The position numbers and the translations under genes are program-made. DNA of 64,000 bases from Deltaproteobacteria bacterium (GTDB taxonomy: Bacteria > Lernaellota > Lernaellaia > JACKCT01), in the NCBI GenBank assembly GCA_020845895.1, contig JADLEX010000047.1, positions 13,073-77,072 on the forward strand, read 5' to 3'. The notes under the pieces were generated by a model, which did no database searches, was not told the origin of the DNA, and saw only the letters and a program-made list of their open reading frames with translations. The stretch's first letter is position 1; every line of letters begins with the position of its first letter. Positions 12,952-55,158 of this stretch are shown here, in pieces.

Positions 12952-13016
12952 GGCGGGCGCAACCTACCAAGTTCGCCGGGCGCGGGCAAGGAAATTCGCT
13001 GAAGGGTCCCGAGAAT

Positions 13017-30274: not shown

Positions 30275-31942
30275 ATGCTTCGAAATGACCTCACGTCGAT
30301 TCTCGCAGTCCTCGCGTTCGCGTGTTTCGCGGCGGGATGCGGCGGCGGTTCGTCGTCGGATTCCGGCGACGGTGCTGACGGCGACGCAGTCGATGACGAT
30401 TCGGTTACCGATGACGACGCGGCCGACGACGACGACACGTCGGTCGATGACGATACGACGGATGACGATTCATCCGATGACGATACGACGGACGATGACA
30501 CGTCGGATGATGACGCCGACGACGACACGTCCGACGACGACGACGACGATACGGGGGATGATGACACGACACCGTGCCCCGACGCGGATGGCGATGGATA
30601 CACCGACGCGGCCTGCGGCGGCGAGGATTGCAACGACGCCGATGACGCGGTGAATCCCGACGCGCTCGATGTGTGCGGCGACGACATCGACAATGACTGC
30701 GACGACACGGTCGACAATCCTGAAAATCCGCCGGTGGACCTGCCGGGATTCCTGCTTGGCGTGTGCGGCAGCGGCGGCGATCCCAAGGTGCTGTTGCCGG
30801 AACTGGGTATCGCATGGCACCGGCCCACGTTTTCGTGGATCTCGTTCGAACCGGAAGTCACCGATCCCGATCTGACGATGGCCGAGATCGAAGCCGATCC
30901 CACGATCATCGACGATTACATCGACGCGAAGAACTGGACGGGGATCGACGCGAACGCGAAATCCATGCTCGATGCGGGACTGACGCTCATGCCCATCGTC
31001 GGTCACGGCTACACGACCACGCTGCCCTATATCGATGGTGATCGCGCAACGCCGGATCGACTCGGCCGCGAGCAATACCTGGCGCAGCAATACCGCGAGG
31101 TGCGCGCGCTGGTGGAGCGCTACGACGGCGACGGCTACAAGGACGCGACCGACATCGTCATCAAATTCTGGCAGACCGAAAACGAACTGAATCAGGCGAT
31201 GCTGACGGGCATCTACGGCTGGCGCTCACCGGAATGGTTCGACGCGTTCGCGTCGGCGTGGGGCGATTGGGATTTCATCACCGAGCTGCTCGCCACCCTT
31301 TACCGCGCCGTCCACGACGCCGATCCCGACGCGATCACCACGCAGAACCTGCACACCGACATCCATCCGAACTACTCGGCGCTACTGGGCCAGCCGTCGT
31401 GGATCGAGGCCGCGACCCTGTGGCGCGATTACGTCGACCTCATGGGCTTCGATGCCTACCCCAACTATTACGTGGCCGAGCCGGTGATGGGCGAGGTGGT
31501 GGGTGAGCGGGCCGAGACGATCGCCGAGGCGTCGTGCGGTAAGCCGGTGATCGCGATGGAGATCGGCTATCCCAAGGGACCGGTCGAATTGGGCTTTTCG
31601 GCCGAGTCGCAGGCCGATTTCATCGACGAGGCATTTCACGCGGCTTACGACGCCGGCGTGGTCGGGTACTTTCATTTTGGGTTGCAAAGCGCCGATGCCG
31701 ACAGCGTGGACATCACGCCGGACGACATCGCGGCCCTCGCGGCGATCGGCCCGGATTTCACCGACGGACGCATCCTGCCCGTGCTCGCGTACCTGATCGC
31801 ACACCCCGAGGTGATCGATCCGCATTTCCTCGATGTTCTTCAGAGCGTCGAGACCTACTGGGGCGTCGTCCACAACGACGGCACACATCAACCGGGCTTT
31901 GACGTTCTCTCCGATATCGCCGACGAGATCGCCGGGCGCTAA
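30275..31942 (+). CDS. lipoprotein: poly-Asp/Ser/Thr linker, MopE-like putative metal-binding Cys motif, TIM-barrel glycoside-hydrolase-like domain
   Basis: lipobox FAAGCGGG; ~75-aa D-rich linker; CPDADGDGYTDAACGGEDCNDADDAVNPDALDVCGDDIDNDCDD; WQTENELN resembles GH catalytic NE(L/P) motif. Confidence 0.55.
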   Translation: MLRNDLTSILAVLAFACFAAGCGGGSSSDSGDGADGDAVDDDSVTDDDAADDDDTSVDDDTTDDDSSDDDTTDDDTSDDDADDDTSDDDDDDTGDDDTTPCPDADGDGYTDAACGGEDCNDADDAVNPDALDVCGDDIDNDCDDTVDNPENPPVDLPGFLLGVCGSGGDPKVLLPELGIAWHRPTFSWISFEPEVTDPDLTMAEIEADPTIIDDYIDAKNWTGIDANAKSMLDAGLTLMPIVGHGYTTTLPYIDGDRATPDRLGREQYLAQQYREVRALVERYDGDGYKDATDIVIKFWQTENELNQAMLTGIYGWRSPEWFDAFASAWGDWDFITELLATLYRAVHDADPDAITTQNLHTDIHPNYSALLGQPSWIEAATLWRDYVDLMGFDAYPNYYVAEPVMGEVVGERAETIAEASCGKPVIAMEIGYPKGPVELGFSAESQADFIDEAFHAAYDAGVVGYFHFGLQSADADSVDITPDDIAALAAIGPDFTDGRILPVLAYLIAHPEVIDPHFLDVLQSVETYWGVVHNDGTHQPGFDVLSDIADEIAGR

Positions 31943-32103: not shown

Positions 32104-32892
32104 ATGCGCGAGTGGATGTTGGTGCTGCCGGCGATTTGCACTGCGCTGTTCCTGCTCAGCGGATGCGGCGACGATGATGACGACAACGACACGGCTCCCT
32201 CCGATGACGATGTCGATGACGACGCCGATGATGACGCGGACGACGATGCCGATGACGACGTCGACGACGATGTCGATGACGATGCGGACGACGACTCGGC
32301 CTTCCCCGATCCCTTCACGGAAGACTTCGAGAGTTACGACTTGGGGACAACGCCCAACGGTCCGTGGTCGCCGGAGTATATCGAAGGCGCCCTCGCCTTC
32401 ACTATCGTCGAGGCCGTGACCAAGGACGGATCCGGCCACGTTGTCGAATTCGACGATCCGGACGGATCTTCCTGGGGCGAGCTGCACGCGAATTTCCCCG
32501 AACAGACGAGCATGTTCACGCTGTCGTGGGATTGGTACTGGCTGTCGGGAGAAATGGCCTGCGTATCGGCGACGCACTCGGGCGGCGGCGGTTGGACCAG
32601 CCTGTTCGACGTGTGTCTCAATATCGCGCCCGACGCACACGTCGAGGCGATCAACGGCGAAGGACAGTGGATCGGCTGCGGCCTGACCGCCCTTGAAACG
32701 TGGCAGACGGTCAGCATGGTTGTGGACTCGTCCTCCATGACCTACTCGGTGCTGATCGACGGCGCGCCGAGCAGTTGCACCGACTTCGACTGGTACATGC
32801 AGAGCGGCCCCGTCGACAGCTTTTCGCTGATGGCGATCGGCGTTTACGACGGTCTTGCGCATTTCGACAACATAGCGCTCACGCACGACTGA
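32104..32892 (+). CDS. lipoprotein with poly-Asp linker and domain of unknown function
   Basis: lipobox LLSGC then DDDDDND...(DDDAx)n; AT-rich promoter-like region upstream. Confidence 0.55.
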   Translation: MREWMLVLPAICTALFLLSGCGDDDDDNDTAPSDDDVDDDADDDADDDADDDVDDDVDDDADDDSAFPDPFTEDFESYDLGTTPNGPWSPEYIEGALAFTIVEAVTKDGSGHVVEFDDPDGSSWGELHANFPEQTSMFTLSWDWYWLSGEMACVSATHSGGGGWTSLFDVCLNIAPDAHVEAINGEGQWIGCGLTALETWQTVSMVVDSSSMTYSVLIDGAPSSCTDFDWYMQSGPVDSFSLMAIGVYDGLAHFDNIALTHD

Positions 32893-32905: not shown

Positions 32906-33436
32906 ATGATGAAACCGTTGGCATTGGCCGCGGCGGCCTTCATGGTTCTCGGAATCGTGCTCGCGGGGTTTGCCACCGCGCCGGAGGACGCCGGCGACTG
33001 CCCCGACGTCAACAGCCTCTGCTTCGACAAGGTCATGTACCTCTACGTCGAGTGCAATCTCTTTCTATACGACCCGGAGTCGGGAGAGCCGATCGACGTG
33101 GAGGATCTCGTCGCCGATTGTCAGGCGGGGACGAACGACTGGGTCAACGCCGTCATGAACTGCATCGCGGTTTTCTGCGGCGATGGGTGCGAGAAAGTCG
33201 GCGAGTGCATCGAGGAGGTGATTGGCGACGATGACGAAACCGCCGATGACGACGCCACCGATGACGACACCGACGACGACTGGCTGAATGACGACGAAAC
33301 GGACGACGATGGCGACGACGACTCCGACGACCTGTGGGACGACGATGACGAAGGCGACGACGACACGACCGCGCCGACCCCCGCGCCGAAGTCGGACGAC
33401 GATGATGACGACGATCCCTATGCCTGGTGCGCGTAA
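32906..33436 (+). CDS. secreted Cys-rich protein with poly-Asp C-terminal region
   Basis: signal peptide; 9 Cys in N-terminal half; C-terminal DDDETADDDATDDDTDDD... Confidence 0.5.
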   Translation: MMKPLALAAAAFMVLGIVLAGFATAPEDAGDCPDVNSLCFDKVMYLYVECNLFLYDPESGEPIDVEDLVADCQAGTNDWVNAVMNCIAVFCGDGCEKVGECIEEVIGDDDETADDDATDDDTDDDWLNDDETDDDGDDDSDDLWDDDDEGDDDTTAPTPAPKSDDDDDDDPYAWCA

Positions 33437-39308: not shown

Positions 39309-40802
39309 ATGAATCACGAGTCGCAAAACGGCGTCGTTCCGCATTCCGCGCTTCCCGCCGCGGTCCCGGATTACGTGAGCGTGTGGCGCGTCGCGCGCCA
39401 CCTTCACCGGCTCAATCGACTGCGCCGGCGCGGCGATCGCGAGGCGGTGCTCGCCCTGCAGCGGCAAAACACGCAGCGCCTGCTGCGTTTCGCGCTCGAA
39501 CGTTGCGGCCATTACCGCGACCGCTTCCGCGGCGACGCCGCGTCACCACGCCTTGCCGATTTCGAACCGACGTCGAAGACGGCGCTGATGAACGACTTCG
39601 ACCGCGTTGTCACCGATCCGCATCTGCGCCTCGCGGACCTGCGCCGCTTCGTCGAGGACCCCGGGCGCGTCGGCGAAATCTATCGCGGGCTCTATGTCGC
39701 GGCCCACACGTCGGGCTCGTCGGGGGAGCGCGGCGTCTTCGTCATCGATCAGTTCGGTTGGGAACTCGGGCAGGCGCTCGCCGTCAGCGGCACGGGAATC
39801 CCCGATTTCCGGTGGGGTTGGGCGCGCGCGATGCTCGCCCCGCTGTGGCCGCTCCACGCCGCCACCGTCATTCCGACGGGCGGGCATTTCGCCAGCGTGC
39901 TCATGCCGCGAATCCGCTCGACCTGGACGGATCGCATCGTTCGGATGGACGAGATCGAGATCAGCGAACCCTTCGACGAGATCATCACGAAGATCAACGC
40001 CATGCGTCCCTTCGCGCTCCACTCGTATCCGACGATGCTCGCGGAGCTCGCCAACGCGCGCCTCGACGGACGGCTGAAGGCGCGCCCGTGGATTCTCACC
40101 GCGGGCGGCGAGCCGTTTACGCCCGAGATCGTCGCGCGCGTGCGCCGCGCGTGGCCGGGCATCGTGATCTTCGACATCTACGCCTGCACCGAGGTGCTCT
40201 CGATCGCGCGTTCGTGCCCGCAGGGACGCTATCACGTCAATGAGGATTGGGTCGTCGTCGAAAACGTCGACCACAAAGGCCGCCCGGTGCCCGCGGGCGA
40301 ACGCGGCGACAAGGTCCTGCTCACGCACCTGTTCAACTATCTCATGCCCATCGTTCGTTACGAGATGTCCGACTCGGTGACGTGGGACGAGACGCCCTGC
40401 CCGTGCGGATCGCCGCTCGCCCACGTGCGCATCGAGGGACGAACCAACCACACCCTCGTTCTACCCGGGCAAACCGGCGGCGATGCGCGCCTCGTGCCGC
40501 TGCCGATCCTCGTGGCGTTTCTCGAAGTGCCGAATCTGCGCACCTATCAGGTCGTGCAGACGGGTCCGGGCGCGATCGAAGTGCGTTACGTGCCCGATGT
40601 CGGCGCGTCGCCCGAGCGCGTGGAGGCCGACATCGACCGCGTGCTGCGCGCTCACCTGCGCCGCAACGGCGCGGACGATCGCCGCGTCGCCATGACGAGT
40701 CTGCGCGTCGAGACGATCGAGCGCGACCCGCGAACGCACAAGATCACCCAGGTCGTCAACATGACGGCCGCCGGGACGACGCCGGAGCGGGGGATCGCAT
40801 GA
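39309..40802 (+). CDS. PaaK/coenzyme-F390-synthetase-like adenylate-forming enzyme
   Basis: AHTSGSSGERG phosphate-binding loop analogue of PaaK T(S/T)G(T/S)TGxPK; ~500 aa. Confidence 0.65.
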   Translation: MNHESQNGVVPHSALPAAVPDYVSVWRVARHLHRLNRLRRRGDREAVLALQRQNTQRLLRFALERCGHYRDRFRGDAASPRLADFEPTSKTALMNDFDRVVTDPHLRLADLRRFVEDPGRVGEIYRGLYVAAHTSGSSGERGVFVIDQFGWELGQALAVSGTGIPDFRWGWARAMLAPLWPLHAATVIPTGGHFASVLMPRIRSTWTDRIVRMDEIEISEPFDEIITKINAMRPFALHSYPTMLAELANARLDGRLKARPWILTAGGEPFTPEIVARVRRAWPGIVIFDIYACTEVLSIARSCPQGRYHVNEDWVVVENVDHKGRPVPAGERGDKVLLTHLFNYLMPIVRYEMSDSVTWDETPCPCGSPLAHVRIEGRTNHTLVLPGQTGGDARLVPLPILVAFLEVPNLRTYQVVQTGPGAIEVRYVPDVGASPERVEADIDRVLRAHLRRNGADDRRVAMTSLRVETIERDPRTHKITQVVNMTAAGTTPERGIA

Positions 40803-40821
40803 GCGTGAGGCGGGCGAAAAC

Positions 40822-41277
40822 ATGAGCGTGGGGCGGGTTCTCGCCGTGGATCTCGGCCGCGCGCGAATCGGCATCGCCGTGTCCGACGGACTGCGCCTCG
40901 CGGCGAATCCCGTGTGCGTCGTTCCCTCGCGCGGCGATGAAGCCGATCTGGAAAACGTCGCGCGGCTCGCGAACGAACACGAAGCCGTCGAAATCGTCGT
41001 GGGGCTTCCGCTCAACATGGACGGCACCGAGAGTACGGGGTCGGCGCACGCGCGCGCGTTCGCATTGCGACTCGCCGCGCAAACCGGCAAACCCGTGTGG
41101 CTGATGGATGAGCGCCTCACAAGCGCGGCGGCGGAAAATCTGTTGCTGGCCGAGGGCGTGCGCGGCAAGAAGCGCAAGGCGCGCGTGGACAAGGTGGCCG
41201 CGGCGTTCATCCTTCAGGCGTTCTTGGATCGCCCCGGCGAGGCGGTGCCGACATTCGCGAGCGGAGTGGGATCGTGA
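40822..41277 (+). CDS. ruvX: Holliday-junction resolvase-like RuvX/YqgF
   Basis: VLAVDLGRARIGIAVSD...VGLPLNMDGTES. Confidence 0.85.
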   Translation: MSVGRVLAVDLGRARIGIAVSDGLRLAANPVCVVPSRGDEADLENVARLANEHEAVEIVVGLPLNMDGTESTGSAHARAFALRLAAQTGKPVWLMDERLTSAAAENLLLAEGVRGKKRKARVDKVAAAFILQAFLDRPGEAVPTFASGVGS

Positions 41278-42278
41278 CGGCGCGGCGATTCTTCGCGGGC
41301 GCGCTGGCGCTGGCGGGCTTGCTGGTCGTCGTGACAGGCGTCGCCGCGCATCTGCTCGTCGGTCCCACGGCGCCGGGCGAGCCGGTGCTGGTGGAGATCG
41401 AGCCGGGCACATCGTTCATGCAGATCGCCGCGCGTCTTGAAGACGCTCGGCTCATCCGGTCGCGCACCGGTTTCCTGCTCGTCGCCAAGCTGCGCGGCCA
41501 GGCCGCGCGGCTGCGCGCGGGGGAGTTCGAAATCGCGCGCGGCCAGAGCGCGCTCGCCGTGCTCGAGCACCTCGTGACCAGTCCGGTCGTGCAGCGACGA
41601 CTGACGATCCCCGAGGGCTGGACGGTCCGGCAGATCGCGACGGCGATGATTGACCAGCGCGTGGACGACGCCCCGGCCGTGCGTGCCGCGCTCGCGGACG
41701 GCGCGTTCGCGCGTGCGATGGATGTTCCGGCGGATTCCTTCGAGGGCTACCTGTTTCCCGACACGTATCAGTTCACCAAGGGCTATGGCGCGCGGCGGAT
41801 GATCGAGGCGATGGTTCGGCGATTCTTCGATGTGTACGGCGGGGAGTTTCGCGCGCGCGAACGCGCCGCCGGCCTGACGACGCACCAGGTCGTCACGCTT
41901 GCGAGCATCGTCGAAAAAGAGACCGGCGCGCCGGCGGAACGCCCACTCGTGTCCCGCGTGTTCCTCAACCGCCTCGCGCTCGGGATGCCGCTGCAATCCG
42001 ATCCAACGGTGATCTATGGTCTTGGCGAGCGCTATACGGGCAAGCTTCGGCGCACCGATCTGAGCGAAGCGACGCCGTACAACACCTATCGCATCCCAGC
42101 TCTGCCGCCCGGGCCGATCGCGAGCCCGGGGCGCGAGTCGCTGCGCGCCGTGCTCTGGCCCGCGGAGTCGAACGCGCTTTACTTTGTTTCGCGCAACGAC
42201 GGCACGCACGCGTTTTCGGCGACCTACGCCGAGCACCGCGTTCTTGTCGATCGCTATCAACGGTCGGGGGCGAAGTGA
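41274..42278 (+). CDS. mltG: endolytic murein transglycosylase MltG (YceG family)
   Basis: N-terminal TM helix then YceG domain with LTIPEGW and YLFPDTY motifs. Confidence 0.85.
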   Translation: MTARRFFAGALALAGLLVVVTGVAAHLLVGPTAPGEPVLVEIEPGTSFMQIAARLEDARLIRSRTGFLLVAKLRGQAARLRAGEFEIARGQSALAVLEHLVTSPVVQRRLTIPEGWTVRQIATAMIDQRVDDAPAVRAALADGAFARAMDVPADSFEGYLFPDTYQFTKGYGARRMIEAMVRRFFDVYGGEFRARERAAGLTTHQVVTLASIVEKETGAPAERPLVSRVFLNRLALGMPLQSDPTVIYGLGERYTGKLRRTDLSEATPYNTYRIPALPPGPIASPGRESLRAVLWPAESNALYFVSRNDGTHAFSATYAEHRVLVDRYQRSGAK

Positions 42279-42280
42279 CC

Positions 42281-42340
42281 CTCACCCCGCCTCCGGCACT
42301 CCTCTCCCGTCTGACGGGAGAGCGGACGGGGGTGAGGGCA
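42281..42340. repeat. nested inverted repeat (family B): CCCTCACCCC...CTCTCCCGTC-TGA-GACGGGAGAG...GGGGTGAGGG
   Basis: read directly in mltG / CN-hydrolase intergenic; shares motifs with 13128..13191. Confidence 0.55.
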
Positions 42341-42406
42341 TCGAACTCCTCGACTCCAAGTTCGCTTGCCGCTAATTTGTCGGCGATTCGATTCGGGGAG
42401 CGTGCG

Positions 42407-43249
42407 ATGGCTGATGTGGTGACGGTGGCGGTAGTACAGCAGCGGACGAGCGGCGATTGGGAGAAGGACCGCGACCGGGCCGCGCAGCGGCTGGAATACG
42501 CCGCGTCGCAGAACGCGGTGCTCGCCGTATTCCCGGAACTCTTCGGTTGGAATTGGTTCGCGGACGGGATGGATAAGAACGCGTTTCGTCTCGCCGAAAC
42601 CCTCGACGGGCCGCGCGTCGAGAACTGGCGCGAGCTTGCCCGCGCGCACAAAATCGCGGTCGCCGCGCCGTTGTTTTTGCACGACGGGCAGGGGCTCTAT
42701 CACAATGCCGTGGCCGCAATCGACGCGACCGGCGAGATCCAGGGTGTATATCGCTCGGTGCACGTGCCGCAGATTCCCGGATGGGAAGGAAAATTTTATT
42801 TCGCCGACGGCGACGACTTTCCGGTCTTCACGTTCGACGGCATCCCCATCGGGTTCCTGATCTGTTGGGACTCGTTTTTTCCCGAGGCGTTTCGGGCGCT
42901 CGCCCTGCGCGGCGCGCGCGCGATCGTCGTGCTGACCAGCGCGACCGGCGGCAACGAGGACCTGTGGACGCGCTCGCTCATGGCGAACGCCTTTTTCAAC
43001 GGCGTGTACGTGCTGCGCGCGAACCGCGTGGGCGAGGAGGAACACGTGTCGTTTTGCGGCGCGTCGTTCGCCGCCGCGCCGACCGGCGATCTGCTCGGCG
43101 AGCCGATGGGCGAGGTCGAAGGCGTGGGCCTGTATTCCATCGACCGCAAAGCGGTCGAACTCACGCGGCGCGAATTTCCCTTCCTCAAAGACCGGCGCAC
43201 GCGGGCGTATTTCGATCTCGCCGAATTGGTGGTGAGACGGCGGGAGTAG
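42407..43249 (+). CDS. carbon-nitrogen hydrolase family protein (nitrilase/amidase superfamily)
   Basis: start MADVVTVAVVQQ; catalytic triad context FPELF, K, ICWDSFFPE. Confidence 0.8.
   Translation: MADVVTVAVVQQRTSGDWEKDRDRAAQRLEYAASQNAVLAVFPELFGWNWFADGMDKNAFRLAETLDGPRVENWRELARAHKIAVAAPLFLHDGQGLYHNAVAAIDATGEIQGVYRSVHVPQIPGWEGKFYFADGDDFPVFTFDGIPIGFLICWDSFFPEAFRALALRGARAIVVLTSATGGNEDLWTRSLMANAFFNGVYVLRANRVGEEEHVSFCGASFAAAPTGDLLGEPMGEVEGVGLYSIDRKAVELTRREFPFLKDRRTRAYFDLAELVVRRRE
43197..43241. repeat. left copy of ~45-bp imperfect direct repeat (3' end of CN-hydrolase gene) flanking vapBC
   Basis: CGCACGCGGGCGTATTTCGATCTCGCCGAATTGGTGGTGAGACGG vs right copy CGTACGCGCGCCTATATCGATCTCGCCGAGTTGGTGGTGAGACGC. 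Confidence 0.6.
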
Positions 43250-43275
43250 GGGAGCGGCGGTTCCGCCGCGCGCCC

Positions 43276-43671
43276 TCACACCTTCATAAAACGCCGATCG
43301 GCATGAAGGGCGCGGTCGAAGGTTGCGACGCGCTCGCACCCGGTGGCGATGGCCGATTCGGCGATCAGATAGTCGGAGAAGTCCCCACGCTTCGCGGTGT
43401 AGTTGTCGAGCGCCGTACGCACGCGCCCGGCCGACTCCATCACCACGTGGCGCGCGGCGACGAGGGCGCGGAGCACGCCCGCGATCTCGGCGCGCGAGAA
43501 CCCGTACGCGCGATCGAGCACCCACACGGTTTCGCACAGCACGATGTCGGCGACGAAAAAGCGCTCGCCCGCGGCGATGCCCCGCTCGATCAATGCGCGC
43601 GCCCGGCGCGATTGCGCCGCGTCGTCCGCGACCAGAAAACGGACGAGCACGTTCGTGTCGAGGGCTATCAT
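43276..43671 (-). CDS. vapC: PIN-domain ribonuclease toxin VapC
   Basis: MIALDTNVLVRF...D...E...D acidic PIN residues; 131 aa; overlaps antitoxin gene by 4 nt. Confidence 0.8.
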   Translation of the reverse strand: MIALDTNVLVRFLVADDAAQSRRARALIERGIAAGERFFVADIVLCETVWVLDRAYGFSRAEIAGVLRALVAARHVVMESAGRVRTALDNYTAKRGDFSDYLIAESAIATGCERVATFDRALHADRRFMKV

Positions 43672-43925
43672 CGTTGATCCGCGCCGCCGCGAATCGCCGC
43701 ATCCATCCCCGCGAGCGTGACGCCCTTTTTTCGCGGTCGCAGTTTGCCGTGAAGATCCCGCAGATCGACGGATCCCGCCGCCATTTCCGCCACGCCGTCA
43801 TCGCGCAGTCGAAATGTCACGCGGTCGCCGGTGCCGAGCCGCATCGCGTCGCGAACCGTCTTCGGAATCGTGATCTGCCCCTTGACCGTGAGCTTTGCGC
43901 TCGATGTCGTCCGCGCGTTCGCCAT
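43668..43925 (-). CDS. vapB: AbrB/SpoVT-MazE-type antitoxin VapB
   Basis: KLTVKGQITIPKTVRDAMRLGTGDRVTF swapped-hairpin motif; start MANARTTS preceded by AGGAGG. Confidence 0.7.
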   Translation of the reverse strand: MANARTTSSAKLTVKGQITIPKTVRDAMRLGTGDRVTFRLRDDGVAEMAAGSVDLRDLHGKLRPRKKGVTLAGMDAAIRGGADQR

Positions 43926-44046
43926 GGGAATCCTCCTGGTCCGGTACGTTCTCATGAAATAGTAAGGAATATAGTAAGGAAACGCAAGAACCGTCGGGCT
44001 TGAAGTGTAGCCGGCGGCCTCAATCGTCCATTCGGCCAAGGACACC

Positions 44047-44091
44047 GTACGCGCGCCTATATCGATCTCGCCGAGTTGGTGGTGAGACGCA
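44047..44091. repeat. right copy of direct repeat flanking vapBC; retains coding remnant ...RAYIDLAELVVRRRD*
   Basis: alignment by eye to 43197..43241 (4-5 mismatches); weaker similarity extends ~15 bp further upstream. Confidence 0.6.
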
Positions 44092-44113
44092 GAGATTGAG
44101 CGTCGGTTGTGCG

Positions 44114-46102
44114 TCAGTCGACGAGTTGCCCCAGGACATCGGTGCTGGTGATTTCGCCCGAAAACGGGATCGAGGCCAGCGCGTCGGCCACATCAGGCGG
44201 AATCTGAAACTTGAGCGCCACGTTGCGTTCGTTGACGCCTCCGTAGCCGTGGAATCCGCCGCCGTCGTAACCCAGTTGCAGGTAGTTTTCAAAACCGAGT
44301 TCGCGGCCCTTTTGGGCGAGGATGTCGGCGTTGTCGCCGTCGATCGGCCAGTGGTCGAACAGCGTGGAATAGACCGTGCCGGTGCCGTCGCGGTTGTCGA
44401 CGATCTCGAAAATCCGCGCCTGCTGGGGGAATGAACAGATCGAGGGCGTCTGCACCTCCCAGTATCCCGCGCCCGGATCGCCGCCCGGCTTTGGGTAAGC
44501 CGTCACGTCATTGACGTGGCCGTGGCCAACGAGATGCAGGATCACGTTGGGATGCGCGTTGAGGACGTCCGACATGCGCTGCGTGCCCACAAGCATCAAT
44601 TCCGCGGGGTGGTGGGACGCGACGACGACCAGGACCTTGTCGGCTTCGGCTTCGTCGAGTTCGTCACGCAGCCACTCGAGCTGGCGAATGCTCATTCCGC
44701 CTTCCGAAACGATGGCCGCGTCCATGGTGTCCAGCACGAGCATACGAAGCGGCACGTCGCCGCCGAGATCCACGCGATACCATCCTCCGTCTTGGGCATC
44801 GACGACGTCGTCGCCGTTGTTGTCGGAAAACCCGTGGCCGTGTGCGGCAAAAAGCGGAATGACCCCTTCGGGTCCGAGAAACTCGCGGGCCGAATCGGCG
44901 GCCACATCCACGCCGTCGTCGGTCGGATCCTCGGGAGTGCCCGCGGTGTACAGATCCACGTCGAAACGCGGGTCGATGTCGTTCGTCCATTCGGGATCGA
45001 AGGTCATCAGCCAAAGAATCGATCGCCAATTGATCGGGATGCCGTAAAGGCCGCCCCACGTGTTCACGGTGGCATCGGGATTGTCGATCAGGTATTGCGC
45101 GAGTGCGCCGACGCCGGGGATGAAGCCGAAGCGCGAGCGCGTCCCCACATATTCGGCTGCGGAAAAATATCCAAGCCGCCCGCCGGGCGTGAAACCGCCG
45201 TTGTTGAGGACATCGTGATTGCCGATGGCGAAATACCACGGCAGGGGCTCGCCGTTCGCGCGGCGCAGTCCGCCCGCGCGGAAGTCGGCGTTGGAATTCG
45301 GAAGACCCGCGCGTTCGAAATGGTTGATGTTGTTGCCGTCGGCGTCGGTTTCCTGCGCGCCGAAATGGCGTTCGCCCCGGTTGCGTCCGGTGTCGGGATT
45401 GATGTCGAGATCGCCGCTGTCAGGCCGCGCCCAGCCCGGCATGCCGGAGATGAGGCCCGTGCCGTCGAGGATATCGATCATCAGTTCGATCTCGTTACGC
45501 TGCGCGTTGTCCGCGCCGTCGCCGAGAACGAGGGCGAGATCGAAGTCGCGATCGTAGTCCGTCTGGATTCGGTTGGAGGTTCGGACGATGGCATTGAATT
45601 GCTGCGCCGTCAGATCTTCCTGCGGGCGGAAGACGTATTCGAACATGCCGAAGAGCACCCACCAGGCGTCGAAAAATGTCAGCCGGGTCGGCGATTCCTC
45701 GTCCACGATCTGCGGGTCGGCGATGGAAAGAAAATAGGTGATGGAAAGCGGTTCGGCGCCGCCGGGATCGCGCGTGGGCAAGGCGCCGAGGTCGTTGCGT
45801 TCGATGTGGGGCTCGCCGGGTCCTTCGCCGAGCGCCCACGTGTCGCCGGACTCCGTGGGGATGATGGTCTTGTCGAGGGTCGTGGGAACGATCCCATCAA
45901 AGGGGTCGCCGGTGTCGTCATCGCCCGCATCGTCGTCGATCACATCATCGTCGCTCTGATCGTCGTCGGCCTGGTCGTCATCCACGGTGTCGTCGTCCGC
46001 GTCGTCGTCGGCGTCCGGCGAGTCGTCGTCAGACGAATCGCGTTCGCCGCAACCGGCCGGAATGACGAAACACGCGGCGAGAAAAACGACTGCAAAGCGC
46101 AT
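44114..46102 (-). CDS. lipoprotein with poly-Asp linker and calcineurin-like metallophosphoesterase domain
   Basis: start MRFAVVFLAACFVIPAGCGERDSSDDD... at 46102 (ORF open upstream to 46564); D-rich linker; GHGH/VASHHP/LHLVGHGH metallophosphoesterase-type motifs. Confidence 0.65.
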   Translation of the reverse strand: MRFAVVFLAACFVIPAGCGERDSSDDDSPDADDDADDDTVDDDQADDDQSDDDVIDDDAGDDDTGDPFDGIVPTTLDKTIIPTESGDTWALGEGPGEPHIERNDLGALPTRDPGGAEPLSITYFLSIADPQIVDEESPTRLTFFDAWWVLFGMFEYVFRPQEDLTAQQFNAIVRTSNRIQTDYDRDFDLALVLGDGADNAQRNEIELMIDILDGTGLISGMPGWARPDSGDLDINPDTGRNRGERHFGAQETDADGNNINHFERAGLPNSNADFRAGGLRRANGEPLPWYFAIGNHDVLNNGGFTPGGRLGYFSAAEYVGTRSRFGFIPGVGALAQYLIDNPDATVNTWGGLYGIPINWRSILWLMTFDPEWTNDIDPRFDVDLYTAGTPEDPTDDGVDVAADSAREFLGPEGVIPLFAAHGHGFSDNNGDDVVDAQDGGWYRVDLGGDVPLRMLVLDTMDAAIVSEGGMSIRQLEWLRDELDEAEADKVLVVVASHHPAELMLVGTQRMSDVLNAHPNVILHLVGHGHVNDVTAYPKPGGDPGAGYWEVQTPSICSFPQQARIFEIVDNRDGTGTVYSTLFDHWPIDGDNADILAQKGRELGFENYLQLGYDGGGFHGYGGVNERNVALKFQIPPDVADALASIPFSGEITSTDVLGQLVD

Positions 46103-46188
46103 CGTCACGCGAACCAACCCCAACAGTGATGTGGTTTGATTGTCCCGGTCGTTGGAATCGATGTCAATTGAGCTGGGCGGGTTGATTC

Positions 46189-46992
46189 TTAGATCAACAT
46201 CCGTACGGGATCGTTCTCCACGACATTCGCGAGCGTCCCGATGCCCTCGACCGTAATCTCGACTCGGTCGCCCGCGACAAGCGGGCCGACGCCCGCGGGC
46301 GTGCCCGAGGCGATCACGTCGCCGGGCATGAGCGTCATGACGCGCGAGATGAAGGCGACGAGTTTGGGCACGTCGTGGATCAGGTCGCGTGTGCGGCCGG
46401 ACTGCCGAATTTCGCCGTTCACGCGCGCCTCGACGCCGAGATCCGCGGGGTCGAGTTCGGTTTCGATCCACGGCCCGAATGGGCAGAAGGTGTCGAAACT
46501 TTTCGCTCGGGAAAACTGCACGTCCTTTCGCTGCAGATCGCGGGCGGTCACATCGTTCACGCACGTGTAGCCGAAGATCACCTCGCGCGCGCGGTCCGCG
46601 GGTACGTGTCGGCAGGGTCGCCCGATCACCACGCCGAGTTCCGCCTCGTGATCCACGCGTTCGGAATCCGGCGGACGCAGGATCGTTCCGCCGTGGTTGA
46701 GAACCGCCGACGGGGATTTGAGAAAGATCATTGGTTCCGCCGGCGCGGCCTTGCCCATCTCCGCTGCGTGAGCGTGATAGTTGACGCCGATGCAGACAAT
46801 CTTCGAAGGACGGCAGGGCGTGAGCAACTGCACGGCGGCGAGTTCCAGATCATTCGCGCCGACGGGCTCGGGGCGGTAGACCGGCGCATCGGGCGCGCTC
46901 CACATGAAGGGGTCCTTCACCGGCGCGATCCGATCGCCCGTCAAAATCCCATAGCCCGATCCCGATTCGTGTCGGTAACGAACGATCCGCAT
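46189..46992 (-). CDS. fumarylacetoacetate hydrolase (FAH) family protein
   Basis: 267 aa from MRIVRY; conserved FAH C-terminal fold residues (E..E..D metal site pattern); enclosing 664-aa ORF is GC shadow upstream. Confidence 0.8.
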   Translation of the reverse strand: MRIVRYRHESGSGYGILTGDRIAPVKDPFMWSAPDAPVYRPEPVGANDLELAAVQLLTPCRPSKIVCIGVNYHAHAAEMGKAAPAEPMIFLKSPSAVLNHGGTILRPPDSERVDHEAELGVVIGRPCRHVPADRAREVIFGYTCVNDVTARDLQRKDVQFSRAKSFDTFCPFGPWIETELDPADLGVEARVNGEIRQSGRTRDLIHDVPKLVAFISRVMTLMPGDVIASGTPAGVGPLVAGDRVEITVEGIGTLANVVENDPVRMLI

Positions 46993-47012
46993 CGTGTGCT
47001 CCTTCGGCGGAT

Positions 47013-47852
47013 CTAAAGACCGAGGACGTCGCGCATCGAGTGCAGACCCGGTTCGCGGTTTTGCAGCCACAGCGCCGCGCGCAGCGCGCCGCGCACGAAG
47101 GTCTCGCGGCTCGACGCCCGGTGCGTGAGCGTGACGCGCTCGCCGTCGCCGAGGAAATGCAGATCGTGGTCGCCGACCACGTCGCCGCCGCGCACCGCGA
47201 GCACGCCGATCTTGCCGCTTGATCGTGGGCCGACGTGGCCCTCGCGGCCGAAGACGAAGGCGTCGTCGCCGAGTTCGAGCGACTCGGCCACGGCCCGGGC
47301 GAGCGCGAGCGCGGTGCCTGACGGTGCGTCGACCTTGTGCCGATGATGGGCCTCGACGATCTCCACGTCGAAGTCCTCGCCCAGCACACGCGCGGCGCGT
47401 TTGGCGAGGGCGATGAGCAGATTCACGCCCACCGAGAAATTCGGCGCAAAGACCGTTCGCGTCCCTGCCGCGATGCGCTCGAACTCCGCGAGCTGGTCGC
47501 CCGCGAATCCGGTGGTGCCGCAGACGTAAGGGATATTTCGGTCGGCGCAGATTTTCACGTGCGTCAGCGACGCGTCGGGCGAGGTGAAGTCGATAACGAC
47601 GTTCGCCGCGACGACGCAGTTGAGCAAATCGTTTTCGAGCGAGCAATTGATCGGACGACCGAAGAGTTCGAGGCCGATGTCCTTGCCGACGTGCGGATGG
47701 TCGTGGCGCTCGGTCGCGCCGTAGAGCGCGTAACCGGGCGTTGTGTGCAGCGCGGTGGCGAAGAGCCGCCCCATGCGCCCCAGCGCGCCCGTCACGACGC
47801 CCTTGATGCGCGGTGCCTCGCTCTCGTCCCGCTCGATTTCCATGCTCGACAT
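47013..47852 (-). CDS. dapB: 4-hydroxy-tetrahydrodipicolinate reductase
   Basis: GALGRMG NAD(P)-binding motif, E(A)HHRHKVDAPSGTA signature; start at MSSMEIE with GAGGGG RBS. Confidence 0.85.
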   Translation of the reverse strand: MSSMEIERDESEAPRIKGVVTGALGRMGRLFATALHTTPGYALYGATERHDHPHVGKDIGLELFGRPINCSLENDLLNCVVAANVVIDFTSPDASLTHVKICADRNIPYVCGTTGFAGDQLAEFERIAAGTRTVFAPNFSVGVNLLIALAKRAARVLGEDFDVEIVEAHHRHKVDAPSGTALALARAVAESLELGDDAFVFGREGHVGPRSSGKIGVLAVRGGDVVGDHDLHFLGDGERVTLTHRASSRETFVRGALRAALWLQNREPGLHSMRDVLGL

Positions 47853-47944
47853 GATGAACCCCTCGCGGCGCGGATTTTCCGAAACGGCGCAAAATGTGTC
47901 GGGTTTGGGCTGGCGGGTCAAGTGCGTTCGAAAAGTCGCGAGCG

Positions 47945-49285
47945 CTATTTGCCGATGCAGAACCGGCTGAAAATCGCGCCGAGCACGTCGTCGGGCGTCG
48001 TCTCGCCGACGATCTCGCCCAGCGCGCGCGCCGCGTCCGCGATTTCGAGCGCGGTGATGGCGGGGGACGAGCCCGCGGCGAGTGCGGCGAGCGCGGCGTC
48101 GAGGTGCGCGATCGCGTCGAGCGTGCGTTGCTCGTGCCGCTCGCTCGCGAGCAGCGCCTCGTCGCGCCCCGAGGCCGCGTCACCCAACGCCGCGCGGGCC
48201 ATTTCGGCGGCCAGCGCGTCGAGCCCCGCGCCGGTCATCGCGCTGACGTTGAGCACGCCCGGCAGCGCGGCGAGGTCGCATTTGTTGGCGACGGCGACGA
48301 TCGGCACGGACGGCAGCGCCTCGCGCAGCGCGCGGTCCTCTTCCGTCTCGCCCGCGGATGCATCGATCACGAAAACGACCAGGTCGGCTTCGGCGATGCG
48401 CTCGCGGGTGATCTCGATGCCCTGCGCTTCCAGGCGTTCGGCCTCGCGCCGAAGTCCCGCGGTGTCCACCAGCCGAAACGGGACATCGGCCAGCACCGCG
48501 TCATCCTCGATCGCGTCGCGCGTGGTGCCCGGTTCCTCGGAGACGAGCGCGCGCCGCCGGCCCACCAGGGCGTTGAGCAGGCTCGACTTGCCGACGTTCG
48601 GCCGCCCCGCGATGACGGCGAGCGCGCCGTCGCGGAAGACGCGCGATCGCGTGTATCCGGCGGCGAGTGCCGCCAAATCGCGCCGCGCCGACTCGATCGG
48701 CTCTACGATCGACGCGGTTTGAACGTCGCCCACGTCGGCGTCCTCAAAGTCGATCTGCGCCTCGACGAGCGCCTTGGCCGAGATCAGCCGTTCACGCAAG
48801 TCGCGCAGCCGCCCGGAGAGCGCGCCCGCGAGCCTCGCGCTCGCCGCCCGCAACGAGGCCTCCGATCGCGCGTGAACGACGTCGAGAATCGCCTCGGCCT
48901 GCGCGAGATCGATGCGCCCCGATTCGAGCGCCCGCCTCGTGAACTCCCCCGGCTCGGCCATGCGCGCGCCCAGCTCGCGCAGCCTCGCGAGCATCGTCGC
49001 GGGGGCGGCGCGTCCGCCGTGCGTGTGCAGTTCGACGACATCTTCACCGGTGAAACTCGCGGGGGCGGGGAAGTGGACGAGATACCCGTCGTCGAACGTG
49101 CGGTCGTCGGCGTCGATGAATCGGCCGTACGTCATCGCGCGCGGTTCGATTGGGCTGGGCCGGGCCGTGCGAAACGCGCCCATGGCCAGGGCCAGGCACC
49201 CCGGTCCCGAAAGGCGGACGATCGCCACACCGGCCACGCCGGACGCCGTGGCGACGGCCGCGATGATGTCCCGTGATGCGCTCAT
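47945..49285 (-). CDS. mnmE: tRNA modification GTPase MnmE
   Basis: start MSASRDIIAAVAT; G-domain GRPNVGKSSLLNAL, DTAGLR; C-terminal CIGK. Confidence 0.9.
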   Translation of the reverse strand: MSASRDIIAAVATASGVAGVAIVRLSGPGCLALAMGAFRTARPSPIEPRAMTYGRFIDADDRTFDDGYLVHFPAPASFTGEDVVELHTHGGRAAPATMLARLRELGARMAEPGEFTRRALESGRIDLAQAEAILDVVHARSEASLRAASARLAGALSGRLRDLRERLISAKALVEAQIDFEDADVGDVQTASIVEPIESARRDLAALAAGYTRSRVFRDGALAVIAGRPNVGKSSLLNALVGRRRALVSEEPGTTRDAIEDDAVLADVPFRLVDTAGLRREAERLEAQGIEITRERIAEADLVVFVIDASAGETEEDRALREALPSVPIVAVANKCDLAALPGVLNVSAMTGAGLDALAAEMARAALGDAASGRDEALLASERHEQRTLDAIAHLDAALAALAAGSSPAITALEIADAARALGEIVGETTPDDVLGAIFSRFCIGK

Positions 49286-49428
49286 GCGGGATTCGGGGAG
49301 TTTCGGCGGCGAAGAGGGCGGACGAAGGGCAATGGTCAATAGAGCGTTGTGAGAGGAGGCTGAATCACTCGGGCCACTGTCCTTCGTCCATTTCGTTCTG
49401 ATTCATCCCGCCCGGCGTCGGGGCAGGC

Positions 49429-51018
49429 TCACTTTGCCGCCGGTCCGTATTGTGCCACGGAATCGGCGATCTCGCCAGAAAATTGTTCGTAATTCTTGAT
49501 GAAACGTCCGGCCAGATCACGGGCTTTGCGGTCGTAGGCTTCAGGGTCTTTCCACGTGGCGCGCGGATCGAGCACATCTTTCGGCACGCCGGGCACTTCC
49601 AGCGGCACCTCGAATCCGAACGTGGGATCGACGCGCGTCGGGACCGCCGCGAGGCTGCCGTCGAGCGCGAAATTCACCAGCGCACGGGTGTGTTCGATTT
49701 TCATGCGCTTGCCCTCGCCGTAGGGACCGCCGGACCAGCCGGTATTGACGAGCCAGCAATGCGTGTCGTGCGTTTCGATGTATCTCTTCAGCAGCAGCGC
49801 GTAGGTCGTGGGGTGGTGGACCATGAAGGGCGCGCCGAAACAGGTCGAGAACGTCGCCTGCGGTTCCTTGCCGAGCCCCTTTTCGGTCCCGGCGACCTTG
49901 GCGGTATATCCCGAGAGGAAATGATACATCGCCTGGCCGGTGGTGAGGCGCGAGATCGGCGGCATCACGCCAAACGCGTCGCACGCGAGCATGAGGATGT
50001 TCTTGGGGTGCTCGTACACACCCCCGATGAGCGCGTGTGGGATGTGCGTCAGCGGGTAAGCCGCGCGCGTGTTTTCGGTCAGCGAATCGTCTTCCAGATT
50101 CAGACGGCGCGTGTTCGGGTCGGCGAAGCCGACATTCTCGAGAATCGTGCCGAACGTGCGCGTGGTCTGGTAGATCTCGGGCTCGGATTCCTTCGAGAGC
50201 TTGATGACCTTGGCGTAGCAGCCGCCCTCGAAATTGAAGATGCCGTCGGGTGCCCATCCGTGTTCGTCGTCGCCGATCAGATCGCGGCGTGGGTCCGCCG
50301 AGAGGGTCGTCTTTCCCGTGCCCGAGAGCCCGAAGAAGAGCGCCGTGTCGCCGTCCGGGCCGCGATTCGCCGAGCAGTGCATCGGCATGACGCCCTTGGT
50401 GGGCAGCAGGTAATTGAGCAGCGTGAAGACGCTCTTCTTGATCTCGCCGGCGTAGCTGGTGCCGCCGATCAGGATCAGCTTTTTCGCGAAGTTGAGGATG
50501 ATGAAGGTCTCGCTGCGCGTGCCGTCCACGTCGGGTTTCGCGTGGAAATTCGGAGCGTTGATGATCGTGTAGTCGGGCTCGAAGTTTTCGAGCTCCTCGC
50601 CCCGGCACTGGATGAACATGTTGCGCGCGAAGAGGCTGTGCCACGCCGTCTCGGTGATGACGCGGATGTAGGCCCTGTGGTCGGGATGCGCGCCCGCCCG
50701 GCAATCCTGCACGAACAGGTCTTTGCCCTGCAGATACGCGGTCATGCGGTGGAAGAGCGATTCGAATCGGTGTTCGTCGAACGCCTTGTTGACGTCGCCC
50801 CACCACACCTCGCCCTGGGTGGACGCTTCGCGGACCACGAATTTGTCGTTGGGCGAACGCCCGGTGTGACCGCCCGTGCGTACGACGATCGGCCCCCTGT
50901 GCGCGATGATGCCTTCGCGGTGCCGCACCACCTGCTCGTAGAGCGCGGGGGTGCCGAGGTTCCAGTATTCATGACCGACGTTGACGATGCCGTGAAGGCT
51001 CAGATCGTAGCGAGGCAC
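49429..51018 (-). CDS. pckA: phosphoenolpyruvate carboxykinase (ATP)
   Basis: GRSPNDKF, kinase-1a GLSGTGKTTLS, CYAKV, NTGW motifs; GTG start at 51018 preceded by GAAGGGG; length 529 aa. Confidence 0.9.
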   Translation of the reverse strand: MPRYDLSLHGIVNVGHEYWNLGTPALYEQVVRHREGIIAHRGPIVVRTGGHTGRSPNDKFVVREASTQGEVWWGDVNKAFDEHRFESLFHRMTAYLQGKDLFVQDCRAGAHPDHRAYIRVITETAWHSLFARNMFIQCRGEELENFEPDYTIINAPNFHAKPDVDGTRSETFIILNFAKKLILIGGTSYAGEIKKSVFTLLNYLLPTKGVMPMHCSANRGPDGDTALFFGLSGTGKTTLSADPRRDLIGDDEHGWAPDGIFNFEGGCYAKVIKLSKESEPEIYQTTRTFGTILENVGFADPNTRRLNLEDDSLTENTRAAYPLTHIPHALIGGVYEHPKNILMLACDAFGVMPPISRLTTGQAMYHFLSGYTAKVAGTEKGLGKEPQATFSTCFGAPFMVHHPTTYALLLKRYIETHDTHCWLVNTGWSGGPYGEGKRMKIEHTRALVNFALDGSLAAVPTRVDPTFGFEVPLEVPGVPKDVLDPRATWKDPEAYDRKARDLAGRFIKNYEQFSGEIADSVAQYGPAAK

Positions 51019-51232
51019 GCGGCTAGCCCCTTCGGGTAGAGAGGAAGGATTTTCCGGGCGAGACGCGACCCAATTCCATTCGCCCGCCCGTTCAATAACA
51101 TAGTTCGCCGCGTGCCGACAATTCGTTTTCGCCGGTTTCGCGCGGGCGCGCGTTTTGACACGCCCCATGGCCGCGACTAATATACGGCCCGTTTTCAGCA
51201 AGCCGCCTTTCGCGGCGATTTCAGGGCACGCC

Positions 51233-52138
51233 ATGGCACGTTTCAGGTTCATCGCGACCGCGGTCGCGGTCGTCATCGGGTTTGCGCCCGCCGGATGCTC
51301 CAAACTCGTCCAGAGCCGTGTCTCGGGGATTGTCGATAACCTGTCGACGGCGGTCCAAAAACAGAAGGACCCCGAGCTCGTCCGCGACGGCGCCCCGGCG
51401 TTCCTGCTGGTCGTCGACGGCGTGCTCGAAGGCGATCCCGATAACGAACGCTACCTGTCCGGCGCGGCGCAGATCTACTCGGCGTATACGTCGGCGTTCC
51501 TCGTCGGCAAGGAGCCGGAGCGGGCGAAAATCCTCTCCGACAAGGCCCGCGACTATGCGATTCGCGCCATGGCCCTGCGCAACCCCACGTTTGCGGCGCT
51601 GCACGATCGTCCGTACACCGAATTCGCGCCGTGCCTGTCGACGTTCACCAAGGTCGATGTCCCCGCGCTCTTTCTCGTCGTGAGCACGTGGGCGACATGG
51701 ATTCAGGCGCACGCCGACGACATGAACGCCATCGCCGATCTCGCCAAGGTCCAATCGATGACGCAGCGCCTGCTGGAACTCGACGACGCATACTCGTACG
51801 GCAGCCCCCACCTCTACATGGGCGTCCTGCACACGCTCATTCCGGCAGCGCTCGGCGGACGGCCCGAAGACGGCAAAAAGGAATTCGAGGCGGCCCTGCG
51901 GCTCGGTCGCGGAAAATTCGTGATGACCTATGTTCTCTACGCGAAGCAGTATGCCCGCCCGGCTCTCGATCGCGAATTGCACGACCGGCTGCTGACCGAG
52001 GCGCTCGCGATTCCGGCCGACGTGGTGCCCGAACTCACGCTTGTGAACACGCTCGCCCAGCGCGAGGCGAAAACCCTGCTCGACGGTTCATCCGACTGGT
52101 TCGGTGAGCCCATGGCCGAAGAAGGAGAAACCCCGTGA
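51233..52138 (+). CDS. TatT-like TPR lipoprotein associated with TRAP transporter (TPAT-type T component)
   Basis: lipobox APAGCS; helical/TPR-like composition; stop overlaps dctP start by 4 nt; assignment rests mainly on context. Confidence 0.5.
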   Translation: MARFRFIATAVAVVIGFAPAGCSKLVQSRVSGIVDNLSTAVQKQKDPELVRDGAPAFLLVVDGVLEGDPDNERYLSGAAQIYSAYTSAFLVGKEPERAKILSDKARDYAIRAMALRNPTFAALHDRPYTEFAPCLSTFTKVDVPALFLVVSTWATWIQAHADDMNAIADLAKVQSMTQRLLELDDAYSYGSPHLYMGVLHTLIPAALGGRPEDGKKEFEAALRLGRGKFVMTYVLYAKQYARPALDRELHDRLLTEALAIPADVVPELTLVNTLAQREAKTLLDGSSDWFGEPMAEEGETP

Positions 52139-54948: not shown

Positions 54949-55158
54949 AGGAGAGCGAAGCGAAGGGCCTTGCGTGAGCTGGTACAAGATCCTTCGCTTC
55001 GCTCAGTATGACAGCGGAAATGAGCGCTCGGAGTGACCGCCACGGATTGCGGCCCTGAGCCCGCTTCTTGTCACCCAGAGCCGCTTCTTTTCACCCAGAG
55101 CCGCTTCTTGTCACCCTGAGCCGCTTCTTGTCACCCTGAGCGAAGCGAAGGGTCTGGC
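54949..55158. repeat. REP/MITE-like element family A, expanded copy: inverted GAGCGAAGCGAAGG / CCTTCGCTTCGCTC arms plus 4 tandem 20-bp units AGCCGCTTCTTGTCACCC(A/T)G
   Basis: read directly after dctM stop; shares GATCCTTCGCTTCGCTCAG..ATGACAG and CTTGTCACCCTGAGCG.AGCGAAGGGTCTG ends with 4078..4168. Confidence 0.6.

Follow-up and report, generated by a model that had tools for sequence, protein, structure and literature searches.

In a 64,000-nucleotide stretch of a Deltaproteobacteria metagenome-assembled genome (MAG; GenBank assembly GCA_020845895.1, contig JADLEX010000047.1, positions 13,073 to 77,072; hereafter the window), a vapBC toxin-antitoxin (TA) cassette lies between two direct copies of the 3' end of a CN-hydrolase gene. 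The copy beside vapC terminates an intact gene, the other is a relic joined to a metallophosphoesterase gene, and a related genome carries the two genes side by side with a single copy and no vapBC. The explanation that we favour, at a probability of about 0.68, is a single ancestral insertion of vapBC between the convergent hydrolase and metallophosphoesterase genes, with a long target duplication that would have originated in host repair or replication. Bare coordinates below are those of the window; the comparison loci, from MAGs or metagenome contigs, are denoted L001, L002, L082, L091, L096, L131 and L146.

A hydrolase gene end on both sides of vapBC

The initial annotation had described the hydrolase 3' end at 43197-43241 as recurring at 44047-44091 with 4-5 mismatches, within direct repeats of 45-60 bp. 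The recurrence is in the right place, with 7 mismatches in 45 positions, and the repeat is longer than described: a repeat search returned 43177-43239 and 44027-44089 (63 nt, 79% identical, spacing 850), the ungapped extent is 73 nt (54/73 identical), and the total duplicated stretch amounts to about 85-90 bp, one gap included. Within it, the last 54 nt of the hydrolase gene (43196-43249) match 44046-44099 at 43 positions of 54, the 11 nt 3' of the stop codon match as well (GAGCGGCGGTT and GAGCGTCGGTT), and a weaker in-register similarity continues upstream to 44019 (14/27 identical, P about 0.014). Local alignment of the two vapBC flanks (43196-43262 against 44046-44108), run with shuffled controls as had been proposed, gave a score of 65, far above the shuffles (17.6 ± 2.3, maximum 28). 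A 32-nt core, TATNTCGATCTCGCCGARTTGGTGGTGAGACG, occurs exactly twice in the window, where shuffles predict none, and this is the sole long, kilobase-spaced direct repeat in the 64 kb once tandem and low-complexity (poly-Asp coding) repeats are set aside. Both copies encode the hydrolase C-terminus and then a stop, as first reported: the last 18 codons read RTRAYFDLAELVVRRRE in the left copy and RTRAYIDLAELVVRRRD in the right one, each before a stop codon, and a tblastn search with the hydrolase found its residues 258-280 again at 44028-44096. Between the copies lie vapC, vapB and their candidate operator alone, an insert of ~754 nt; the PIN toxin (E=3e-14) and the AbrB-type antitoxin (MazE/AbrB, E=2e-8) are recognised there as had been claimed, and CN_hydrolase (E=1e-44) in the adjoining gene.

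An uninterrupted site, with the hydrolase gene directly followed by the phosphoesterase gene, had been named as the decisive check, and it is found in L082 (GCA_023382855.1), a genome of about 88% nucleotide identity whose 20.5-kb contig carries the closest homologue of the phosphoesterase (P0121, 93% identical). There, the hydrolase and metallophosphoesterase genes are convergent, 9 bp apart and without vapBC. Window positions 42397-43248 align to L082 10851-10000 (91%), while 44037-46108, comprising relic and phosphoesterase, align unbroken to 10062-7995 (89.6%); the two alignments overlap, so that both window copies match one and the same L082 gene end (its last 63 nt, 10000-10062). The junction of relic and phosphoesterase in the window is the same as that of the true hydrolase end and phosphoesterase in L082, and the 788 extra bases of the window correspond to vapBC plus one additional target copy. 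The flanks of the two loci are collinear over ~14 kb (39802-51416), except that the window lacks three genes which L082 has between phosphoesterase and FAA-hydrolase. This empty site supports the proposal that the TA module was inserted at the hydrolase 3' end with duplication of the target.

The right-hand copy reads in frame as RPFGQGHRTRAY, where all orthologues share FPFLKDRR.R.Y, whose F, L, K, D and R are near-invariant; the FLKDRR of the family has become FGQGHR, and there is no start codon. Since near-invariant hydrolase residues are replaced, we regard this copy as a decaying relic. The objection that it might belong to an unrelated conserved gene does not hold, given its decayed FLKDRR and its collinearity with the L082 gene end. 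Hydrolase orthologues of 59-95% identity retain the C-terminal REFPFLKDRR..Y motif. The overall identity of the relic, about 70-74%, roughly matches, by our own estimate, neutral decay at a synonymous divergence (dS) of about 0.3 per lineage. Two other interpretations of the repeat were tried and rejected: a pair of alleles diverged under selection, raised by codon-position differences of 2, 1 and 8, an excess that we estimate to be not significant against a neutral relic paired with a constrained copy; and a regulatory RNA or terminator, for which there is no Rfam match and no terminator-like site within the repeat. The hydrolase and the phosphoesterase are 100% identical to MCC6157597.1 (IT350_06050) and MCC6157600.1 (IT350_06065), respectively, and the spacing of the IT350_ tags fits two genes only between them (presumably 06055 and 06060), which leaves the relic unannotated.

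No mobility machinery accompanies the cassette. Neither the window nor L002, a second genome with vapBC at this position, has an integrase or transposase open reading frame (ORF) in or beside the insert, and no tRNA, tmRNA or Rfam family was found at the locus. The insert ends carry no terminal inverted repeats, and the duplication of about 75-90 bp is too long for a DNA transposon, an insertion sequence or a miniature inverted-repeat transposable element (2-14 bp), all of which were rejected on these two grounds. A site-specific integrative element is disfavoured by the lack of a tyrosine or serine recombinase gene in the window and L002 and of a core common to independent sites, and an integron cassette was rejected for want of an attC-like inverted repeat; the microhomology CGGCGG near both junctions is too frequent in DNA of 65% G+C to count. 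The initial annotation had spoken of TA mobility without a transposase: the absence of transposase, integrase, tRNA and terminal inverted repeats is borne out, while mobility itself is deduced from the comparison of MAGs.

Table 1. Features of the vapBC locus and its neighbours in the window.
Feature	Position	Strand	Remarks
RuvX gene	40822-41277	+	
YceG gene	41274-42278	+	
CN-hydrolase gene	42407-43249	+	N-carbamoylputrescine-amidase-like, intact; target whose 3' end was duplicated; Pfam PF00795, E=1.2e-44
Left target copy, functional	43177-43264	+	~73 nt of hydrolase end, stop codon at 43247-43249, ~13 nt of spacer
vapC	43276-43671	-	PIN-domain toxin, 131 amino acids; PF01850, E=2.7e-14
vapB	43668-43925	-	AbrB/MazE/SpoVT-type antitoxin, 85 amino acids; PF04014, E=1.7e-8; TIGR01439 AbrB domain, E=4e-10
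vapBC promoter/operator region (candidate)	43960-43989	-	A+T-richer; two direct repeats TAGTAAGGAA (43960-43969, 43972-43981) and conserved TCTTG (minus strand)
Spacer between cassette and relic	43990-44018		homology to L002 ends at 43989
Right target copy, decaying relic	44019-44110	+	hydrolase 3' end and ~11 nt of original spacer; core 44046-44099 reads RTRAYIDLAELVVRRRD and stop
Metallophosphoesterase lipoprotein gene	44114-46102	-	TIGR03767/8-like; convergent to the hydrolase gene in the ancestral arrangement
FAA-hydrolase and DapB genes		-	beyond the metallophosphoesterase gene

Several further features of the window were recorded. The 26-nt spacer between the stop codons of the hydrolase gene and vapC contains a G+C-rich hairpin, GCGGCG-GTTC-CGCCGC (43251-43272), which has no T-run and was not called as a terminator. 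The metallophosphoesterase belongs to a family of ~650 amino acids with weak Pfam Metallophos matches only, mostly unannotated, and has a 53% identical paralogue (P0129, IT350_06985) on another contig (150,049 bp) of the same MAG. The centre and 3' part of the hydrolase gene (42650-43070) are 92-97% identical among the window, L082 and L001, as against 79-90% for its 5' part and the flanking genes, a mosaic that could stem from recombination or from strong constraint. Many predicted secreted proteins and lipoproteins contain long, Asp-rich linkers of low complexity (DDDxxDDD..), and the GAC/GAT repeat DNA that codes for them dominates the repeat listing of the window (45900-46050, 2954-3228, 30374-30700, 32167-32325 and 33212-33330; also L002 6700-6920). 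Short tandem repeats are found at 55061-55140 (a 20-nt unit, CCGCTTCTTGTCACCCAGAG, ~4 times) and at 60285-60366 (a 41-nt unit, twice).

The cassette and its site in related genomes

The position of the cassette is common to L002 (CAZPJD010000014.1), which is about 84% identical to the window at the nucleotide level over 6.6 kb. Its hydrolase gene is followed by a homologous vapBC in the same orientation, with 24 nt between the hydrolase and vapC stop codons against 26 nt in the window, and then by a GH43 gene, with neither relic nor phosphoesterase. The shared position of vapBC in two genomes of no more than 84% identity suggests an ancient insertion event. L001 and seven Logan/ENA contigs (L084-L090) have the hydrolase gene, a gene of 413 amino acids and a GH43 gene, without vapBC, and more distant hydrolase orthologues (L003-L006) adjoin neither vapBC nor phosphoesterase. 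The neighbours of the insert are core genes, syntenic in four relatives. The interval from the hydrolase to the FAA-hydrolase gene is a hotspot of indels, and each of four lineages, about 85-90% identical, has its own gene content there: vapBC and phosphoesterase in the window (43250-46190), phosphoesterase and genes of 100, 302 and 386 amino acids in L082 (5257-9998), the 413-amino-acid gene and GH43 in L001 (1869-4391), and vapBC and GH43 in L002 (5892-7925).

By its sequence, the locus is a VapBC-type type II TA system, with a PIN toxin carrying acidic residues, a coupled DNA-binding antitoxin and a function that is predicted. The vapB stop codon overlaps the vapC start by 4 nt, and VapC residues D5, E47, D100 and D119 are invariant in an alignment of 12 homologues. 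Purifying selection acts on the vapBC coding sequences (ratio of nonsynonymous to synonymous divergence of vapC about 0.2 against L002), and their G+C content (0.65-0.68) and that of their third codon positions (GC3) equal the genome values. Only three other VapC proteins are more than 70% identical to that of the window, namely that of L002; P0172, which lies between ACT-domain and ArsA-like genes on a 2.4-kb contig (L096) of the assembly that also contains the empty-site genome; and P0171, which lies between BNR/PKD and DUF362 genes on L091-L095, from sequencing runs that also yielded the L001-like contigs. At the ACT/ArsA locus, three tandem 20-nt repeats, GCGTGTGGCGATGTCGGTGG, stand just upstream of the vapB promoter (L096 381-440). 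Similarity among the four cassettes extends from TCTTGnnnTTCCTTACTnnnnTCCTTAC to the vapC stop codon and ends there; TCTTGnnnTTCCTTACTnnnnTCCTTAC is conserved upstream in all four, as are the paired TAGTAAGGAA repeats, and 43960-43989 is thus a candidate vapBC operator. Synonymous divergence among the four is 0.74-1.14, at which any co-moved neutral flanks would be unrecognisable, so that the true ends of a mobile segment are not visible.

A neighbour-joining tree of VapB and VapC has the form (L002,(window,(L091,L096))), with bootstrap values of 88% and 97%. Housekeeping genes agree with it: L002 is the most distant (dS 0.46-0.69), and the window, L001 and L082 are about equidistant (dS 0.31-0.51). 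This match of cassette tree and housekeeping distances fits a long residence in the clade, with insertion at or before its base. On the simplest reading, the cassette would have been in the clade since that point, ancestrally at the hydrolase site, where the two earliest-branching lineages kept it and which it left in the other two.

The recurrence of flanking repeats was screened by scanning JGI metagenome contigs with a VapC alignment, retaining loci with usable flanks and aligning 400 nt upstream of vapB with 400 nt downstream of vapC. Repeats with a score of at least 60 flank 3 of 69 vapBC sites (the window excluded), whereas 1498 random placements yielded 4 unrelated hits of that score (Fisher P=0.0025). 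At L146, whose VapC is 43% identical to that of the window, the repeat is 97 nt long (573-669 and 1562-1657, score 116). Downstream, it forms the 3' portion of the coding sequence of a convergent MBL-fold gene (1534-2409, minus strand), and its upstream copy, ahead of the vapB promoter, reads in frame DFDRLQKTAK.SQELFD.M.ELY..WV and abuts the stop of a co-directional 141-amino-acid gene; as read from the contig, this is the layout of the window at an unrelated site. The repeat of L131 is 89 nt long and 95% identical, and the contig ends inside it. A motif of ~20 nt, CTAAAGnnCTGACCCC, occurs there twice just after the upstream repeat and twice just before the downstream one (128-210 and 1040-1096), and these extra motifs mean that the flanks are not a simple duplication. 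At L091, a repeat of ~70 nt scores 61 against 19.5 ± 2.7 for shuffles, and it perhaps flanks the cassette by chance, being a member of a dispersed palindromic family also present at 42280-42337. L096 shows no flanking repeat in the same alignment. The genes beside the cassettes of L091, L096, L146 and L131 do not occur in the window. The repeats of the window, L091, L146 and L131 have no mutual similarity (z at most 2.1) and no common att-like core.

The palindromic family is a repetitive extragenic palindromic (REP)-like element of ~58-70 nt (CCCTCACCCC..CTCTCCCGTC..GACGGGAGAG..GGGGTGAGGG) in intergenic regions of the clade. Copies lie at 42280-42337 and 13007-13190 in the window, at 4910-4980 and 9701-9764 in L002, and at 2023-2090 and 2845-2914 in L091, where two of them flank vapBC. 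At 13007-13132 of the window, a 63-nt unit is tandemly doubled beside one REP-like copy.

How the cassette may have arrived

On the favoured reading, a single insertion, in an ancestor common to these MAGs, would have placed a vapBC cassette of promoter/operator, antitoxin and toxin (about 715 bp) in the gap of only about 9-14 bp that separated the stop codons of the convergent hydrolase and metallophosphoesterase genes. The duplicated target, about 75-90 bp, would have comprised the last ~25 hydrolase codons, their stop and the greater part of the spacer; the copy beside vapC would keep the hydrolase full-length, and the copy upstream of the vapB promoter would have stayed joined to the phosphoesterase gene, decaying since. 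Host DNA repair or replication may have produced the duplication, by fill-in of a widely staggered break around the incoming fragment or by a template switch. With stop codons so close and conserved residues in the last 25 hydrolase codons, an insertion can leave the two genes whole only by duplicating the gene end, and selection may have retained this one since it spared both neighbours.

Several points weigh against this account. Homology between the window and L002 in the spacers beside the cassette, considered as proof of a single event, is not significant, so that the identity of the event in the two genomes is argued from position and orientation. A single insertion also requires later losses of vapBC in L082, where the loss must be precise, and in the L001-like lineage, because the window hydrolase is nearer to theirs than to that of L002; recombination between the then-fresh repeats would yield the precise loss. 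The attribution of L091 to the L001-like genomes and of L096 to the L082 genome relies on shared samples and a shared assembly, respectively, and not on linkage. All genomes are MAGs or short metagenome contigs, and the junction at 43990-44046 is seen in this assembly only. Decay is further advanced in the 5' third of the relic than in its core (14/27 against 43/54 identical), contrary to what uniform neutral decay predicts, and the enrichment control in the repeat screen is crude, same-size pseudo-cassettes having been placed randomly without matching of gene boundaries. The repair-type mechanism is conjectural.

More tentatively, and with considerable doubt, the vapBC lineage might be a transposase-free mobile unit that enters with duplications of 70-100 bp, exits precisely via the repeats, leaving a clean site as in L082, and re-inserts elsewhere within one genome lineage, which would explain a cassette tree that matches the genome tree and yet spans three different loci. 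Hydrolase 3' fragments carried with the cassettes to other loci, as an excised circle would predict, were looked for at those loci and none was found.

Among the rival explanations, one-sided homologous import, or homology-facilitated illegitimate recombination, is unlikely, though it survives best. It supposes a related donor in which the hydrolase gene already adjoined vapBC, recombination through that gene and the sequence upstream of it, and a second, illegitimate joint in the recipient hydrolase end, left behind as the relic. A relic-free arrangement does exist in L002, in both the window and L146 it is the gene next to vapC whose segment is duplicated, as expected of an anchor gene, and several synonymous differences between the copies are also polymorphic among relatives; import would moreover place the cassette at the same site in the window and L002 without later precise losses. 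However, the window hydrolase, its 3' half included, is closest to L082 and L001 (92-97%) and furthest from L002, sliding-window identity reveals no donor signature in it, and the window cassette is not specially close to that of L002. The third-position excess (2, 1 and 8 differences) is, by our estimate, not significant against decay in situ, and the donor must have had vapBC beside the same gene beforehand.

A decayed integrative element, whose repeats would be degenerate attL and attR sites, which would have targeted the hydrolase 3' end with a replacement gene end and which, its integrase and remaining parts deleted, would have left vapBC as a stabilising module, strikes us as very improbable. 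The att sites of tRNA-targeting elements span a range that includes repeats of 45-90 bp (PMC2853133). Neither an integrase gene nor a remnant ORF lies in the 754-nt insert of the window or in that of L002, and the locus has no tRNA or other RNA gene. Related cassettes elsewhere are flanked by repeats without a common core, and the island would already have to have been minimal when the two genomes inherited it. Integrative elements do commonly target and restore gene 3' ends and carry TA modules.

We also see little prospect for pre-existing repeats, whether a prior tandem duplication of hydrolase end and spacer into which vapBC dropped, or dispersed repeats between which it inserted by chance, as perhaps at L091, where the repeat comes from the dispersed palindromic family. 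Chance insertion between repeated sequences is a class recognised by Furuta et al. (PMC2853133), and small tandem duplications occur elsewhere in the window; but two events at one spot would be needed, none of the five lineages with the hydrolase gene shows a duplicated end without vapBC, and the repeat in the window is unique sequence, not dispersed. Least probable of all, and nearly negligible, is an assembly artefact joining contigs of co-occurring strains, one with hydrolase-vapBC and one with hydrolase-phosphoesterase. In its favour, the window is MAG sequence, relatives show each of the parental arrangements (L002 and L082) and the junction at 43990-44046 is particular to the window. Against it, copies only ~80% identical offer no long shared k-mer for a false join, the right copy is substituted at invariant hydrolase residues and is no functional allele, and the same architecture occurs independently in L146.

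Relation to known insertion classes

Integrative elements bounded by attL and attR resemble the insertion in the window in that direct repeats represent a gene 3' end and the gene stays intact through the copy beside the insert; the window differs in having no integrase, no common att core, no RNA gene and an insert of only ~0.75 kb. Homology-facilitated illegitimate recombination, reportedly described by de Vries and Wackernagel in 2002 in naturally transformable bacteria, likewise brings in foreign DNA by one homologous anchor and one illegitimate joint and needs no element-encoded enzyme. Its usual outcome is a deletion of recipient DNA, whereas the window shows a duplication, and no donor-like signature in the hydrolase gene.

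Chromosomal TA pairs in general are held by a recent review to be acquired horizontally, independently or on islands, and no more is said (PMC7167474). The vapBC of the window resembles the pairs treated in reviews as a minimal pair in a variable intergenic spot between core genes, patchy among relatives and in some cases near REP elements (here L091); it differs in that the reviews give no insertion footprint or mechanism, where the window displays a target duplication and an empty site.

Insertion with long target duplication has been described for restriction-modification (RM) gene complexes (Nobusato et al. 2000, Gene 259:99; Furuta, Abe & Kobayashi 2010, PMC2853133; PMC3874152). The repeats of that class exceed 30 bp, are on the order of 100 bp and variable, and both align to one copy in the empty site; mobility genes are absent, and the repeats often span a start or stop codon, the target gene being kept intact (PMC2853133). 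DNA double-strand breakage by the restriction enzyme might, according to the same authors, underlie the process (PMC2853133). By the features that Furuta et al. (2010) used, the window has direct repeats of more than 30 bp flanking the insert, in low copy (two copies only within the 64 kb), an insert of less than 20 kb that holds vapB and vapC only and no integrase, transposase or mobile-element gene, and repeats that both align to a single copy in a relative whose flanks are collinear on both sides. The likeness thus comprises a small addiction-type unit between such repeats, a single-copy empty site and no mobility genes, together with a repeat that spans the stop codon of an intact target gene and repeat lengths that vary from site to site. 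Two differences stand beside it: the cargo is vapBC and not RM, which concerns the cargo and not the insertion signature, and the repeats are old (~74-80% identical) and not near-perfect. Judged by these features of the DNA, the insertion in the window is TA cargo in an insertion class known from RM genes; our literature searches for insertion with long target duplication of TA modules found no report. The breakage model should not apply here, since the toxin is a PIN-domain protein that we take, by its family, to be an RNase and do not expect to cut DNA, which suggests that the class is host-made and not cargo-made.

TA modules would thereby be tied to this class by a footprint that combines target duplication, an empty site, a cassette lineage at other loci and, in L146, a second independent case of the same layout. 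The footprint also indicates how a cassette may survive between tightly packed convergent genes, as duplication keeps both reading frames whole. If the mobile-unit reading were true, it would give stand-alone TA modules a life cycle parallel to that proposed for RM systems and independent of DNA cleavage by the cargo. The window offers a concrete footprint of TA establishment, and possibly of TA relocation, beside the one described for RM gene complexes.

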